Sequence record: MZ234013.1
Reading direction: 5' to 3' (one strand)
Source of the DNA: Escherichia phage vB_EcoM-101112UKE3-1
Length of the DNA: 64,000 bases
Shown here piece after piece: positions 15,631 through 21,025 of the stretch; position 1 is the first letter of the stretch, and each line of letters begins with the position of its first letter. Made by a program: the position numbers and the translations under genes. Under the pieces are notes generated by a model that did not search any database, was not told the DNA's origin, and was given only the letters and a program-made list of their open reading frames with translations.

Positions 15631-16833
15631 ATGAAAGTATGTATTTTTATGGCTCGAGGTCTTGAAGGTTGTGGTGTAACAAAATTCTCACTCGAGCAAC
15701 GTGATTGGTTTATTAAAAATGGTCATGAAGTAACTTTGGTTTATGCTAAAGATAAATCATTTACTCGTAATTGCGCGCATGATTATAAATCATTTTCAAT
15801 TCCGGTTTTATTGGCAAAAGAATATGATAAAACACTTAAGCTGGTAAATGATTGTGATATTCTAATTATCAATTCAGTTCCTGCTACTTCGGTTGAAGAA
15901 GACACTATTAATAACTATAAAAAAATTATTGATAACATTAAACCTTCTGTTCGTGTTGTAGTTTATCAACATGACCATTCTTCTCTTTCTTTGCGTCGAA
16001 ATTTGGGATTAGAAGAAACTGTTCGTCGAGCTGATGTTATTTTTAGTCATTCTGATAATGGTGATTTTAATAAAGTTCTGATGAAAGAATGGTATCCAGA
16101 AACTGTTTCTCTGTTTGATGATATTGAAGAAGCACCGACAGTATATAACTTTCAGCCTCCTATGGATATTGCGAAGGTTCGGTCAACCTACTGGAAAGAT
16201 GTTTCTGAAATTAACATGAATATCAACCGTTGGATTGGTCGTACGACTACATGGAAAGGTTTTTATCAGATGTTTGATTTTCATGAAAAACATCTTAAAC
16301 CTGCAGGACTAAGTACTATTATGGAAGGTCTGGAACGTTCTCCAGCGTTCATTCCTATTAAAGAAAAGGGAATTCCATACGAGTATTATCGTCTTCATCA
16401 AGTAGACCAAATTAAAATTGCTCCTAATTTGCCAACGCAAATTCTTGACCGTTATGTAAATAGCGAAATGCTTGAACGCATGAGTAAATCCGGTTTTGGT
16501 TATCAGCTGAGTAAGTTGGACAAAAAATATCTACAACGTTCTTTAGAATATACTCATCTCGAGCTTGGTGCATGTGGAACAATTCCGGTATTTTGGAAAT
16601 CTACTGGCGAAAATTTAAAATTCCGTGTTGATAATACTCCTTTGACCTCGCATGATAGCGGTATCATTTGGTTTGATGAAAATGATATGGAATCAACGTT
16701 TGAACGTATTAAAGAACTGTCATCTGACCGAGCTCTTTATGACCGTGAGCGAGAAAAAGCATATGAATTTTTGTATCAGCATCAAGATTCAAGCTTCTGC
16801 TTTAAAGAACAGTTTGACATTATTACAAAATAA
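15631..16833 (+). CDS. a-gt: DNA alpha-glucosyltransferase
   Basis: 400 aa; size, position downstream of 55 and recalled T4 alpha-gt N-terminus. Confidence 0.85.
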   Translation: MKVCIFMARGLEGCGVTKFSLEQRDWFIKNGHEVTLVYAKDKSFTRNCAHDYKSFSIPVLLAKEYDKTLKLVNDCDILIINSVPATSVEEDTINNYKKIIDNIKPSVRVVVYQHDHSSLSLRRNLGLEETVRRADVIFSHSDNGDFNKVLMKEWYPETVSLFDDIEEAPTVYNFQPPMDIAKVRSTYWKDVSEINMNINRWIGRTTTWKGFYQMFDFHEKHLKPAGLSTIMEGLERSPAFIPIKEKGIPYEYYRLHQVDQIKIAPNLPTQILDRYVNSEMLERMSKSGFGYQLSKLDKKYLQRSLEYTHLELGACGTIPVFWKSTGENLKFRVDNTPLTSHDSGIIWFDENDMESTFERIKELSSDRALYDREREKAYEFLYQHQDSSFCFKEQFDIITK

Positions 16834-16872: not shown

Positions 16873-17013
16873 ATGATATTTCTTGGATATGTGATACTTT
16901 TTCTTGCATTTTATCTATTCACTAGAGCATGCTGGATTGGTTTCTTTAGCACACCAGATGGGTTTATTTCAATAATTTTATTTTGCATTTCAATGACGGT
17001 TCTTGATATATGA
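16873..17013 (+). CDS. small membrane protein (46 aa)
   Basis: ATG 16873; hydrophobic; ATGA overlap with gene 47 start. Confidence 0.35.
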   Translation: MIFLGYVILFLAFYLFTRACWIGFFSTPDGFISIILFCISMTVLDI

Positions 17014-18029
17014 AAATTTTAAATTTAGGTGATTGGCATTTAGGCGTTAAAGCTGATGATGAGTGGGTTCAATCCATTCAGTTGGATGGAATTAAACAAG
17101 CAATAGAATATTCTAAGAAAAATGGAATTACTACCTGGATTCAATACGGCGATATTTTTGATGTGCGAAAAGCAATCACGCATAAAACTATGGAGTTTGC
17201 TCGTGAAATAGTTCAAATGCTTGATGATGCTGGTATTACCCTACATACTGTTGTAGGAAACCATGATATGCACTTTAAAAATACTTTAACTCCAAATGCC
17301 TCTACTGAGCTTTTGGCTAAATATCCTAATGTTAAAGTATATGATAAGCCTACTACAGTAGATTTTGACGGATGTTTAATTGATTTAATTCCTTGGATGT
17401 GTGAAGAAAATACTGGTGAAATTCTTGAACACATCAAAACTTCATCTGCTTCTTTTTGCGTTGGTCACTGGGAACTGAATGGATTTTATTTTTATAAAGG
17501 AATGAAATCTCATGGTCTTGAACCTGATTTCCTTAAGACTTATAAAGAGGTGTGGTCTGGTCACTTCCATACTATCTCTGAGGCTGCTAACGTCAGATAT
17601 ATTGGGACACCATGGACACTAACTGCAGGTGACGAGAATGACCCTCGCGGGTTCTGGATGTTTGATACAGAAACAGAACGAATGGAATTTATTCCAAACA
17701 ATACTACCTGGCATCGTAGAATTCATTATCCATTTAAAGGAAAAATTGACTATAAAGATTTTACAAATCTATCAGTACGTGTTATAGTAACTGAAGTAGA
17801 CAAAAATCTGACGAAGTTCGAATCTGAACTAGAAAAAGTTGTGCATTCATTACGAGTTGTGTCAAAAATTGATAACTCTGTCGAGTCAGATGAAAGTGAA
17901 GAAGTTGAAGTTCAATCTCTTCAGACGTTGATGGAAGAATACATTAATGCAATTCCAGACATCACTGATTCTGATCGCGAAGCACTTATTCAATATGCAA
18001 ACCAGCTATATGTAGAGGCAACACAATGA
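17010..18029 (+). CDS. 47: recombination nuclease subunit gp47 (Mre11-like)
   Basis: 339 aa; phosphoesterase motifs GDWHLG, GDIFD, GNHD. Confidence 0.95.
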   Translation: MKILNLGDWHLGVKADDEWVQSIQLDGIKQAIEYSKKNGITTWIQYGDIFDVRKAITHKTMEFAREIVQMLDDAGITLHTVVGNHDMHFKNTLTPNASTELLAKYPNVKVYDKPTTVDFDGCLIDLIPWMCEENTGEILEHIKTSSASFCVGHWELNGFYFYKGMKSHGLEPDFLKTYKEVWSGHFHTISEAANVRYIGTPWTLTAGDENDPRGFWMFDTETERMEFIPNNTTWHRRIHYPFKGKIDYKDFTNLSVRVIVTEVDKNLTKFESELEKVVHSLRVVSKIDNSVESDESEEVEVQSLQTLMEEYINAIPDITDSDREALIQYANQLYVEATQ

Positions 18030-18289
18030 CTTTTGATGAATTTAAAAATGTTATGATGAGTAAGCATTTTGAATGCGAAGTAAAAGATGATATTGGTCAT
18101 AAAGAAATTATTGAATATTGGTTTGAACCGTTAGAGGTTGAAGATAATTGTATTAAAAAGGTTACGGTCTGTACAGATTGGGCTGTATCTTTTAACTTCA
18201 ACATTTTAGATAATGACACACCTAAATCATTACGAGATATGGCTGTATCTTGTATTAAGGATGCATACTGTGAAGTTTTCGACATTTGA
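18026..18289 (+). CDS. hypothetical protein (87 aa)
   Basis: ORF track; ATGA overlap with gene 47. Confidence 0.4.
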   Translation: MTFDEFKNVMMSKHFECEVKDDIGHKEIIEYWFEPLEVEDNCIKKVTVCTDWAVSFNFNILDNDTPKSLRDMAVSCIKDAYCEVFDI

Positions 18290-18476
18290 CATTAATGATG
18301 AATTCATAGCAAATATTGATTACACCGAAGAAGATTCTAGATATGTTGGAATAATTTATATCACATCAAAAGCAGCACAAGGTGTTGTTTGCATGGCTGA
18401 ATTTGATGAATACTTTTTAGATTATGATGATATGATAGAATGGTCTAAAAGATACATTAAAAGGAATCTTTTGTGA
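18270..18476 (+). CDS. hypothetical protein (68 aa, GTG start) whose 5' end is duplicated in the next gene
   Basis: GTG 18270; N-terminus VKFSTFDINDEF mirrors VKNFKLDINDEF of the HNH ORF. Confidence 0.3.
   Translation: MKFSTFDINDEFIANIDYTEEDSRYVGIIYITSKAAQGVVCMAEFDEYFLDYDDMIEWSKRYIKRNLL
18286..18304. repeat. 19-bp exact direct repeat copy 1
   Basis: ttgacattaatgatgaatt; second copy at 18489-18507. Confidence 0.8.
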
Positions 18477-19327
18477 AGAATTTTAAACTTGACATTAATG
18501 ATGAATTTTTAATAAAGGAATTAGTTGAAAAATTAGCGTTGAGTGAAGAAGACGCCAAGTCTTACATTAATTTTATTTCTATGAATTCAACTGTTAAAAC
18601 TCCAGGTAAAACGGAAGCACACCACGTGCTTCCTAAATCAATATTTCCTGAATATTTAAAATCTACATGGAATTTAGTTAATTTAAGTCATTTTAATCAT
18701 TTTAAAGCACACTTCTTATTAGCAAAAGGTAAAAATGGAAAAATGCTAAATGCTTTAAATAGAATGATGTCAGGAAAAACATATAAAAATTTATCTTTAG
18801 CCGAAGTTGATTTAATAGCTGCTGAATATAGTTTTATAAAACAAGATGTAAGTGACACAATATCAAAAAGGCTTCAACAGTATTATTCAAATCCGCAAAA
18901 TAGAAATGCTGCTAGAGAAAGGGCATTAAAATATTTTTCAGTAGCAAAAAATAGGAAAGATAACAAAGAAAGATTAAATAATTTTAAAACAAAACAAAAA
19001 ATTTCAATGGCTTCAAGGGAATGGTTTAATAACGAAGAAAATAAAATTAAACACCAAAAGGCTGTTCGTGCTGCTTTATCAAAACCTGAATATAAAATAG
19101 CTATATCAAATTCAGTAGCTGCTAGTTGGAAAAATCCGGAGATTAGAAAAGCTCATATAGCGTCTCGACGAAAAGGCTATCATTGGGATAATAAAGATAA
19201 ATTGTATGAATTGTGGATATCATATAATCGTCCTAAACATGTGATGTTTAGAAAAATGTTAGTTAAGAATGGATATCCAATAGAGGCTTCATTACAGGCT
19301 TTAGTTAAAGAATTTTCTTCATTGTGA
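18473..19327 (+). CDS. HNH-family homing-endonuclease-like protein
   Basis: 284 aa, GTG start; HNH core EAHHVLPKS...NLVNLS...HFKAH; basic C-terminal half with repeated NP-x-x-R motifs. Confidence 0.6.
   Translation: MKNFKLDINDEFLIKELVEKLALSEEDAKSYINFISMNSTVKTPGKTEAHHVLPKSIFPEYLKSTWNLVNLSHFNHFKAHFLLAKGKNGKMLNALNRMMSGKTYKNLSLAEVDLIAAEYSFIKQDVSDTISKRLQQYYSNPQNRNAARERALKYFSVAKNRKDNKERLNNFKTKQKISMASREWFNNEENKIKHQKAVRAALSKPEYKIAISNSVAASWKNPEIRKAHIASRRKGYHWDNKDKLYELWISYNRPKHVMFRKMLVKNGYPIEASLQALVKEFSSL
18473..19327 (+). mobile_element. candidate free-standing homing endonuclease gene insertion between 47 and 46
   Basis: HNH ORF flanked by duplicated start segment. Confidence 0.4.
18489..18507. repeat. 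19-bp exact direct repeat copy 2
   Basis: ttgacattaatgatgaatt at 5' end of HNH ORF. Confidence 0.8.
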
Positions 19328-19342
19328 ACAATTGGATACAAA

Positions 19343-21025
19343 ATGAAATCATTTAAACTTAATAGAGTAAAATATAAAAATATAATGTCAGTTGGTCAAA
19401 ATGGAGTTGACATTCAATTAGATAAGGTTCAAAAAACTCTTATTACTGGACGAAATGGCGGTGGTAAGTCTACTATGTTAGAAGCCATCACATTTGGGCT
19501 TTTTGGCAAGCCATTTCGTGATGTAAAGAAAGGTCAATTAATAAACAGCACAAATAAGAAAGAACTTTTAGTTGAACTGTGGATGGAATATGATGAGAAA
19601 AAGTACTATATCAAAAGAGGACAAAAACCGAACGTTTTTGAAATCACCGTTAACGGTACACGTCTTAATGAATCTGCCAGCAGTAAAGATTTCCAAGCAG
19701 AATTTGAACAGCTTATCGGAATGTCATATGCCAGTTTCAAGCAGATTGTTGTCCTTGGTACAGCAGGGTATACCCCTTTCATGGGTTTGTCGACCCCTGC
19801 GCGAAGAAAGCTTGTGGAAGACCTGCTTGAGGTAGGAACATTAGCTGAAATGGATAAGCTTAATAAAGCACTAATACGTGAATTAAACTCACAGAACCAA
19901 GTGCTTGATGTTAAAAAAGATAGTATTATCCAACAAATTAAAATATATAATGATAACGTTGAACGCCAGAAAAAATTGTCTGGTGACAATCTTACTCGTC
20001 TTCAAAATATGTATGATGATTTGGCAAAAGAAGCTAGAACGCTAAAATCGGAAATAGAAGAAGCTAATGAAAGATTAGTTAATATTGTTTTAGATGAAGA
20101 CCCGACTGATGCATTTAATAAAATCGGTCAAGAAGCAGTTTTAATTAAATCAAAAATTGACTCGTATAATAAAGTCATTAATATGTATCACGAAGGTGGA
20201 TTATGTCCAACCTGTTTGTCACAATTAAGTTCCGGTGATAAAGTTGTTTCTAAAATTAAAGATAAAGTTTCTGAATGTACGCATTCGTTTGAACAGCTTT
20301 CAACACACCGTGATAATTTAAAAGTTCTTGCTGATGAATACCGAGATAATATTAAAACCCAGCAGTCGTTGGCAAATGATATTCGCAATAAAAAGCAATC
20401 TCTAATCACGACAGTAGATAAAGCTAAAAAAGTTAAAGCAGCTATAGAAAAAGCATCATCCGAGTTTATTGACCATGCTGATGAAATAGCATTGCTTCAA
20501 GAAGAACTTGATAAAATTGTTAAGACAAAAACTAATTTAGTAATGGAAAAATACCACCGAGGAATTTTGACTGATATGCTCAAAGATTCTGGTATTAAAG
20601 GTGCTATTATTAAAAAGTACATTCCATTATTTAATAAGCAGATTAACCATTATCTTAAAATAATGGAAGCGGATTATGTGTTTACATTAGATGAAGAATT
20701 TAATGAGACAATTAAATCCCGTGGTCGTGAAGATTTTAGTTATGCTTCATTCAGTCAAGGTGAAAAAGCACGAATTGATATTGCTCTTTTATTTACTTGG
20801 CGTGATATTGCTGAAAAAGTTTCAGGTGTTAAAATAAACACACTGATTCTTGATGAAGTTTTTGATTCAGCGACCGACGTTGAAGGTGTAAAAGCTATTT
20901 CAACTATTTTAGATAGTTTAAAAAATACTAATGTTTTTGTTATTTCGCATAGAGACCATGACCCGCAAGCATACGGTCAGCATCTTCAAATGAAGAAAGT
21001 TGGTCGATTTACTGTAATGGTTTAA
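19343..21025 (+). CDS. 46: recombination ATPase gp46 (Rad50/SbcC-like)
   Basis: 560 aa; Walker A GRNGGGKST, central coiled coil with CPTC zinc hook, C-terminal LILDEVFDS. Confidence 0.95.
   Translation: MKSFKLNRVKYKNIMSVGQNGVDIQLDKVQKTLITGRNGGGKSTMLEAITFGLFGKPFRDVKKGQLINSTNKKELLVELWMEYDEKKYYIKRGQKPNVFEITVNGTRLNESASSKDFQAEFEQLIGMSYASFKQIVVLGTAGYTPFMGLSTPARRKLVEDLLEVGTLAEMDKLNKALIRELNSQNQVLDVKKDSIIQQIKIYNDNVERQKKLSGDNLTRLQNMYDDLAKEARTLKSEIEEANERLVNIVLDEDPTDAFNKIGQEAVLIKSKIDSYNKVINMYHEGGLCPTCLSQLSSGDKVVSKIKDKVSECTHSFEQLSTHRDNLKVLADEYRDNIKTQQSLANDIRNKKQSLITTVDKAKKVKAAIEKASSEFIDHADEIALLQEELDKIVKTKTNLVMEKYHRGILTDMLKDSGIKGAIIKKYIPLFNKQINHYLKIMEADYVFTLDEEFNETIKSRGREDFSYASFSQGEKARIDIALLFTWRDIAEKVSGVKINTLILDEVFDSATDVEGVKAISTILDSLKNTNVFVISHRDHDPQAYGQHLQMKKVGRFTVMV

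Follow-up and report, generated by a model that had tools for sequence, protein, structure and literature searches.

We analysed a 64,000-nucleotide (nt) stretch of the genome of Escherichia phage vB_EcoM-101112UKE3-1 (sequence record MZ234013.1), hereafter the window, in which an open reading frame (ORF) of 284 amino acids (aa) stands directly in front of the essential recombination gene 46. The window is a T6/RB51-like Tequatrovirus segment, sharing 98–99% identity with T6, RB51, RB68, PP01 and many recent isolates. According to the ORF list and to the T4 and T6 annotations, the gene order on the plus strand is a-gt, 47.1, gene 47, 46.2, 46.1, the 284-aa ORF and gene 46. A preliminary reading of the same DNA, made without database searches (hereafter the sequence-only reading), had placed the ORF between genes 47 and 46; it does lie upstream of gene 46, but its immediate neighbours are 46.1 and 46. 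The ORF is separate and free-standing, with its own stop codon, and is optional among close relatives; its GTG start overlaps the TGA stop of 46.1 (GTGA). A scan of the locus for sigma-70 promoters and terminators gave no signal higher than background.

The three blocks of the HNH core recognised in the sequence-only reading are all present in the 284-aa protein: EAHHVLPKS (residues 48–56), NLVNLS (residues 67–72) and HFKAH (residues 76–80). Its proposed likeness to free-standing Mob-type HNH enzymes was also borne out. In tblastn searches residues 47–281 (235 aa) aligned with T4 MobD at 30% identity (E 3e-11) and dozens of other genes annotated as Mob-like were matched as well, and the protein matched PHROG 655, "homing endonuclease", at 8e-45. 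An exhaustive HMMER search retrieved 975 relatives, a word-indexed protein search only 6. Residues H50, H51, N67, H76 and H80 are invariant in an alignment of 49 sequences and at least 90% conserved in an alignment of 80. An AlphaFold2 model built from the 80-sequence alignment (mean predicted local distance difference test score, 94.1) places beta strands at residues 47–51 and 68–72 and a helix at residues 73–84 round the motif, with a long helical tail behind them, so that a beta-beta-alpha topology is predicted at the HNH motif. Residues 1–10, which are borrowed from neighbouring genes as described below, are unstructured and have the lowest confidence of the model. No information was gained from fold searches that used the complete model.

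The HNH and NUMOD domains for which a profile check had been suggested were found in some relatives only. A Pfam scan of the 284-aa protein itself detected no HNH or NUMOD domain, only noise at E ≤ 1, and the NUMOD3 repeats (PF07460) in particular gave no match; an NCBIfam scan of the protein gave no match, and phmmer and profile searches against PDB sequences yielded nothing significant. When 49 relatives were scanned one by one in Pfam, NUMOD3 was found in 14, the HNH domain PF01844 in 4, an I-HmuI NUMOD-like domain in 4, HNH_4 in 2 and HNH_5 in 2. The family profile, TEaHHILPK...N.v.L...H..AH, aligns in the canonical register with the HNH domain of 6me0, a group II intron maturase, although weakly (E 0.59). 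Because no curated HNH profile matches the protein itself, its membership of the HNH superfamily rests on transitive homology. By sequence homology the protein is filed as a Mob-type HNH protein with putative nuclease activity. Of the C-terminal half, described earlier as basic and rich in repeated NP-x-x-R motifs, the first property holds (Table 1), whereas only two exact motifs exist (NPQNR at residue 140 and NPEIR at residue 221), the rest being degenerate; this half is presumed to be the DNA-binding region, with NUMOD3-like repeats that are at most degenerate. RefSeq already labels the ORF "homing endonuclease" in T6, RB68, PP01 and others. The literature search found no functional study of this particular gene. 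The census of Petrov et al. 2010 (PMC2993671, Table 5) lists one "other HNH" gene each for T2, T6 and RB51, entries that may correspond to this gene.

Alignment with T4 and T6 supports the earlier suspicion that the ORF is an insertion: it is an insert relative to T4, and since T6 and T2 (the latter with a frameshift) carry the gene, T4 is the sole empty comparator among the three. The segment absent from T4 is bounded by two copies of the 9-bp direct repeat TTTAAACTT. The sequence-only reading had missed this second duplication, which defines the insertion, together with the substitute start of gene 46. In T4, gene 46 begins with GTGAAGAATTTTAAACTT followed by AATAGAGTA, and its GTG overlaps the stop codon of 46.1. 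In the window, GTGAAGAATTTTAAACTT is instead the beginning of the HNH ORF and is followed by GACATTAATGATGAATT, while gene 46 restarts 15 nt past the HNH stop codon, as ATGAAATCATTTAAACTT followed by AATAGAGTA. The HNH ORF is read from the original initiation region of gene 46, that is, the AAGGA sequence at 18461–18465, a spacing of 7 nt and the GTG on the 46.1 stop; the endonuclease gene has taken from gene 46 its Shine-Dalgarno sequence, its start codon, its first six codons and its coupling to 46.1. In exchange, the cassette supplies gene 46 with a replacement start, made of a 15-nt spacer, ATGAAATCA and the second TTTAAACTT. ATGAAATCATTTAAA, with which gene 46 opens in the window, agrees with the Mosigvirus-type start at 15 of 15 positions. 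The captured GTG is the sole in-frame start 5' of the conserved N-terminal helix of the HNH protein, and expression of the protein therefore depends on the captured initiation region. We also observed that in the GenBank record of RB3 (KM606994; locus L007, 843) gene 46 is annotated from an internal ATG at codon 15, whereas T4 uses the GTG overlapping the 46.1 stop; this annotation mismatch falls exactly at the invaded site.

Table 1. Features of the gene 46 locus in the window (positions of the 64,000-nt stretch).
Feature	Positions	Strand	Basis and remarks
284-aa HNH ORF, GTG start, intact, Mob-like; putative free-standing homing endonuclease gene	18473–19327	+	ORF list, homology
HNH codons 1–6, GTGAAGAATTTTAAACTT, the native gene 46 start	18473–18490	+	Identical in T4, 17/18 in RB3
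HNH catalytic core, residues 47–84 (TEAHHVLPKS...WNLVNLSHFNHFKAH)	18611–18724	+	Conserved residues; AlphaFold2 model
Basic all-helical C-terminal half, residues 131–284	18863–19324	+	Isoelectric point 10.35, 35 K+R; lost by frameshift in T2
Segment absent from T4, 870 bp	18491–19360 (equivalently 18482–19351, owing to the repeat)	+	Three-way alignment of window, T4 and T6
Left 9-bp direct repeat TTTAAACTT bounding the insert	18482–18490	+	T4/T6 alignment, junctions inspected
Right 9-bp direct repeat TTTAAACTT, gene 46 codons 4–6	19352–19360	+	T4/T6 alignment, junctions inspected
15-nt spacer ACAATTGGATACAAA and substitute gene 46 ATG	19328–19345	+	T4/T6 alignment
Repeat copy 1 (native), 46.1 codons 6–12, TTGACATTAATGATGAATT	18286–18304	+	[D/H]EF conserved in 46.1 of HNH-less genera
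Repeat copy 2	18489–18507	+	nt 18491–18507 = HNH codons 7–12, 46.1-derived
HNH-linked divergence patch, 47 nt (gene 46 nt 17–64), proposed target/immunity region	19360–19406	+	Comparison with RB3-type allele
Gene 46, Rad50/SbcC-like recombination nuclease subunit, gene with invaded start	19343–21025	+	ORF list, T4 annotation
Gene 46.1, 68 aa, GTG start	18270–18476	+	Pfam DUF5487, E 2e-49; AAGGA 8 nt upstream
Gene 46.2, 87 aa	18026–18289	+	Pfam T4_Y03C, 2.8e-43; T4 annotation; 3' end shares 20 nt with 46.1 start
Gene 47	17010–18029	+	ORF list, T4/T6 annotation
a-gt	15631–16833	+	ORF list, T4/T6 annotation; 47.1 next

The 5' end of the HNH ORF also resembles that of 46.1, as had been noticed from the sequence. 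The 19-bp exact duplication is there, the 19-mer TTGACATTAATGATGAATT occurring once in each gene; the two copies are 203 bp apart and, counted from the GTGAAG start of each gene, occupy the same codon register, and both initiation regions consist of AAGGA, 7–8 nt and GTGAAG. A repeat search extended the similarity to 78% identity over 45 nt (18269–18313 against 18472–18516). The similarity is real and has the character of a recombination footprint, in line with the insertion footprint suggested earlier. The claim that the first ~35 bp of the ORF duplicate the 46.1 start holds in part: HNH codons 7–12, GACATTAATGATGAATT, are a copy of codons 7–12 of 46.1, whereas the first 18 nt are the native gene 46 start found in T4 and RB3. 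The 5' end of the HNH ORF is therefore a three-part chimera, in which gene 46 codons 1–6 are followed by 46.1 codons 7–12 and then by the HNH sequence proper. The gene 46 and 46.1 starts themselves share TGTGAAG and are identical at 12 of their first 18 nt.

We favour 46.1 as the source of codons 7–12 because (i) 46.1 homologues natively carry the [D/H]-E-F motif in genera without the HNH gene (LDDEFVANIDY in DK-13, HRHEFSIG in p000v, VKLHEFNLG in L023), (ii) most of the HNH relatives retrieved by HMMER begin about 6–10 residues later than the 284-aa ORF and (iii) Mosigvirus F2 offers a parallel. The opposite possibility, in which 46.1 would have arisen as a tandem copy of the HNH N-terminus and then decayed, was considered and rejected: there is no DNA similarity past 45 nt, the BLASTP likeness is confined to the first ~35 residues, and the 46.1 homologues with [D/H]EF in HNH-less genera speak against it as well.

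HNH genes homologous to the 284-aa ORF over their full length (42–43% identity) also lie directly 5' of gene 46 in F2 (Mosigvirus) and SEA1 (Gelderlandvirus), and in each case gene 46 contains a linked divergent patch of ~50 nt, as in the window. The arrangement differs, however: in F2 and SEA1 the HNH gene stands in place of a 46.1-like ORF and at its 3' end runs 14 nt into the start of gene 46, whereas in the window 46.1 is retained, the HNH gene sits on the original gene 46 start and gene 46 begins at a new start of its own. The HNH-less Mosigvirus p000v has the order 46.2-46.1-46, and its 46.1 begins ATGACGAAGACTGACTATGAAATC; F2 has the order 46.2-HNH-46 with no 46.1, and its HNH gene begins ATGACGAAGACTGATTATGAAACT. 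The F2 HNH gene has 22 nt in common with the start of 46.1 in p000v, keeping about the first 7 codons of 46.1; in F2 the endonuclease gene has taken the place of the 46.1 body while retaining the 46.1 start. The F2 copy is annotated "MobD-like homing endonuclease". F2 additionally carries a second annotated homing endonuclease gene directly after gene 46 (locus L005, 4976–5692, minus strand), so that both ends of gene 46 are flanked.

Allele counts were made in a phage collection of about 518 Tequatrovirus and 156 Mosigvirus records. The HNH gene is present in 70–71 Tequatrovirus records belonging to several species, including T6, RB51, RB68, PP01, T2 and a Hafnia phage. The T4-type allele, with no HNH gene, the native GTG start and the gene 46 patch, accounts for ~74 records, and the RB3-type allele, with neither HNH gene nor patch, for ~367. 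The sequence-only reading had named an ORF present in all relatives with identical boundaries, and lacking HNH similarity, as the finding that would speak against it; the ORF is missing from ~86% of Tequatrovirus records. Among Mosigvirus records the F2 state is found in 10 of 156, ~94% being without it. Several copies are altered. The T2 copy (locus L008, 1601–2215) has a 2-nt deletion and encodes 204 aa, with the HNH core kept and the basic tail lost; the RB68 copy (P0002) is truncated to 208 aa; and for RB51 and Ac3 the match falls into two pieces. The T2 and RB68 copies are thus probably decaying, and that of RB51 appears to be so likewise. No HNH-positive example was found among 80 gp46 loci of IMG/VR. 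Exact-pattern scans of IMG/VR returned no match even for a junction known to exist and were hence uninformative.

The presence of the HNH gene is linked to a short divergent patch in gene 46. Between the RB3-type allele and the window, 14 substitutions fall within the 47 nt of the patch and only 6 within the next ~580 nt. The patch is identical in type in all 70 HNH-positive records; T4 has no HNH gene, yet shares it (49/51 with the window). Each HNH-positive phage was compared with an HNH-less congener in three genera. Identity over gene 46 nt 16–66 and over nt 67–600 was 73% and 99% for the window against RB3 (Tequatrovirus), 76% and 98% for F2 against p000v (Mosigvirus), and 73% and 96% for SEA1 against L023 (Gelderlandvirus). 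In all three within-genus pairs codon 12 of gene 46 changes from CAA/CAG (Q) to AAA (K) or TCT (S). The RB3 patch is 82% identical to that of the HNH-less p000v, against 78% downstream, and so appears to behave as vertically inherited sequence. The window patch is the outlier: it is 61% identical to that of p000v and closest to the allele of the HNH-positive SEA1 (80%, including a run of 24/24). Residue Q19 of gp46 was considered as a marker of HNH-positive alleles across genera and was rejected, many HNH-less genera having Q19 or K12 natively. As a separate observation, the 8-mer TTGACATT has 7 copies in the window, 3 of them at this locus (18286–18293, 18489–18496 and 19407–19414); the copy at 19407–19414 lies exactly at the right edge of the patch, which may reflect recombination microhomology or be a coincidence.

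Taken together, we read the ORF as a promoterless, free-standing, Mob-type HNH homing endonuclease gene that was inserted in frame after codon 6 of gene 46, the 5' end of which is its probable target, a reading built on sequence comparison to which we give a probability of about 0.7; cleavage and homing by the protein are inferred, their indirect signatures being the divergent patch linked to the gene in three genera, the decayed copies and the T4-type allele taken as a scar. In the sequence of events that we propose, the endonuclease gene would first have replaced the body of 46.1 while keeping its start (46.1 codons 1–12 fused to HNH), a state still seen in Mosigvirus F2, and recombination at the level of microhomology would then have shifted it onto the gene 46 start in a genome that retained 46.1. 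In a mixed infection, the enzyme would cut RB3-type genomes, which are HNH-less, naive and presumably sensitive, in or near gene 46 nt 17–64, and double-strand-break repair would copy the HNH gene together with the resistant 47-nt patch. The patch would be, or include, a cleavage-resistant version of the enzyme target, and the endonuclease gene would travel with ~65 nt of foreign or variant gene 46 5' end. The T4-type allele would derive from an HNH-positive allele by recombination at the TTTAAACTT repeats, either through deletion or through short-tract repair ending at the repeat, both of which would join the native start to the variant patch; it would be expected to be immune. Because HNH-less T4 shares the HNH-linked patch while the majority RB3-type allele differs from it at 14 positions, the data suggest that T4 is a former carrier whose gene 46 5' end is a resistant scar. 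More tentatively, and at somewhat less than even odds, the locus may exemplify a distinct insertion strategy, in which an endonuclease gene enters its own essential target in frame, captures the start codon and ribosome-binding site (RBS), carries a spare start and a resistant 5' segment, and encodes an enzyme cutting within ~70 bp, with T4 having lost the gene through the 9-bp repeats.

Several points weigh against this picture. The literature records neither nuclease activity, nor a cleavage site, nor homing for the protein or its close homologues. A target less than 70 bp from the insertion would be atypical, because free-standing T4 endonucleases generally cut hundreds of base pairs from their own gene (PMC2988022). 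Patch residues such as K12 and Q19 are native in other HNH-less genera, and we therefore rely only on the within-genus contrasts; the patch could also be donor DNA that simply came in with the gene and confers no immunity. A contiguous intermediate of the form 46.2-[46.1(1–12)::HNH]-46 was not found in Tequatrovirus, the search of the phage collection having given two-piece matches only. Lastly, the N-terminus of the SEA1 HNH protein, MIDAETILK, weakly resembles INDEFLIK and has no obvious 46.1 origin, so that the direction from 46.1 to HNH is favoured rather than proven and the gene-conversion alternative stays open.

According to that alternative, the 19-nt identity is not the relic of a fusion but stems from recent short-tract gene conversion, or from a shared constraint such as a translational operator or another mRNA element. 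T4-type phages recombine very actively, both starts have the same AAGGA, 7–8 nt, GTGAAG layout, and HNH relatives natively begin with D/E-F-L-I-K-like residues, so the protein likeness may predate any exchange. We nevertheless consider it rather unlikely, as no known operator matches the sequence, the F2 HNH gene kept the first codons of 46.1 on replacing it, and the similarity ends abruptly after 45 nt. That the repeat is a chance match is scarcely credible: AT-rich DNA of this kind often contains short repeats in two copies, several having been found by the repeat search, but when the 1.6-kb region was simulated 500 times with matched composition (first-order Markov), exact direct repeats attained at most 16 nt and 19 nt was reached in 0/500, and the two copies share their codon register after two GTGAAG starts.

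A different order of events would result if the T4-type allele were ancestral. The HNH cassette would then have been inserted with an 18-bp target-site duplication whose right copy diverged later, and T4 would bear no scar. The patch common to T4-type and HNH-positive alleles (49/51) fits this order, as does the 14/18 identity, including 9 exact nt, of the two gene 46 starts, and the junctions alone do not separate insertion from deletion. The right copy, however, has diverged at 4 of 18 positions whereas the flanks are ~98–99% identical, and over the initial 15 nt it agrees with the gene 46 start of Mosigvirus at 15/15; because the copy is so diverged and foreign-looking, insertion into a T4-type ancestor is less parsimonious. 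As the patch is moreover an outlier with respect to HNH-less relatives, lying closest to the HNH-positive SEA1 allele, and as equivalent patches accompany the HNH gene in two other genera, we judge a T4-type ancestor unlikely. Very improbable, finally, is a domesticated, non-selfish role of the ORF as an accessory nuclease or DNA-binding partner of gp46/gp47. Its constant position directly upstream of gene 46 in three genera and its translational link to the 46.1/46 cluster would agree with such a role, but it is missing from most Tequatrovirus and Mosigvirus records (~86% and ~94%), it is frameshifted in the viable laboratory phages T2 and RB68 (and in RB51, judging from the two-piece tblastn match), and it belongs to the same family as the Mob homing endonucleases.

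Inserted in frame in gene 46 as we propose, the gene can be set beside characterised mobile endonucleases. T4 MobD, its closest relative in a characterised family, shares the HH...N...H core and, behind it, the basic tail of helices, and is likewise free-standing and promoterless (PMC2988022); it differs in lying at another locus (the nrdC.11/mobD.1 interval), and no fusion to the opening codons of an adjacent gene is known for it. Its activity and target are listed as "ND" in Table 1 of PMC2988022. T4 MobE, found in the nrdA/nrdB interval and cleaving nrdB, is a free-standing HNH enzyme with demonstrated activity (PMC2988022). Like the 284-aa ORF, MobE lacks a separate translation initiation region, its translation being linked to that of the gene before it by an overlapping stop and start, and it targets an adjacent conserved gene of an essential pathway (PMC2988022), in likeness to the target proposed here; on the other hand, it lies between two genes without taking over the start of the downstream one, and the sequence similarity is only distant. 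The layout of the 284-aa ORF fits the pattern described in the review of Edgell, Gibb and Belfort (PMC2988022), according to which half of the free-standing T4 endonucleases have no initiation region of their own and overlap upstream ORFs. Intron-encoded enzymes cut within 25 bp of their insertion site (PMC2988022). If the patch is the target, the 284-aa protein would resemble enzymes of introns and inteins such as I-TevI in cutting less than ~70 bp from an insertion that splits native sequence; it differs from them in that no intron or intein is involved here, the function of gene 46 being kept by a new start and not by splicing.

The gene is in itself an ordinary, uncharacterised Mob-like homing endonuclease gene of a known kind. 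As far as our searches show, neither the chimeric 5' end, nor the capture of the start codon, nor the inferred scar in T4 has been described in the literature searched. The locus offers an example of how a selfish gene with neither promoter nor RBS might settle in an essential operon and leave its host viable, by fusion to the first codons of a resident gene and provision of a substitute start. The classic laboratory phages appear to show every stage of gain, decay and loss at one site: if the proposal is true, a single locus would display the whole life cycle, naive in RB3, invaded in T6, decaying in T2 and RB68 and lost in T4. If the predicted target (gene 46 codons 6–22) is correct, marker exclusion round gene 46 would be expected in crosses of T6 with RB3-type phages, T4 would be immune to the enzyme, and the protein would represent a new, mappable HNH specificity. 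The locus is experimentally tractable and these predictions are testable with the classic phages.

Three further observations were made. An inverted repeat with a 9-bp stem at 18613–18633 (GGAAGCAC...GTGCTTCC), the ninth pair of which lies beside the 3-nt loop, covers the catalytic TEAHHVLP codons of the HNH ORF and was flagged by the scan as a terminator-like hairpin on the minus strand. Both copies of the 19-nt repeat contain an out-of-frame mini-ORF, ATGATGAATT(C/T)(A/T)TA(G/A), encoding M-M-N-S/F-stop (18298–18312 and 18501–18515). In Shigella phage ESh25 (locus L006, 2492–3331), a Mob-like HNH gene that is 33–36% identical lies between nrdD and nrdG and overlaps both neighbours, the same wedged layout between two genes of one pathway.

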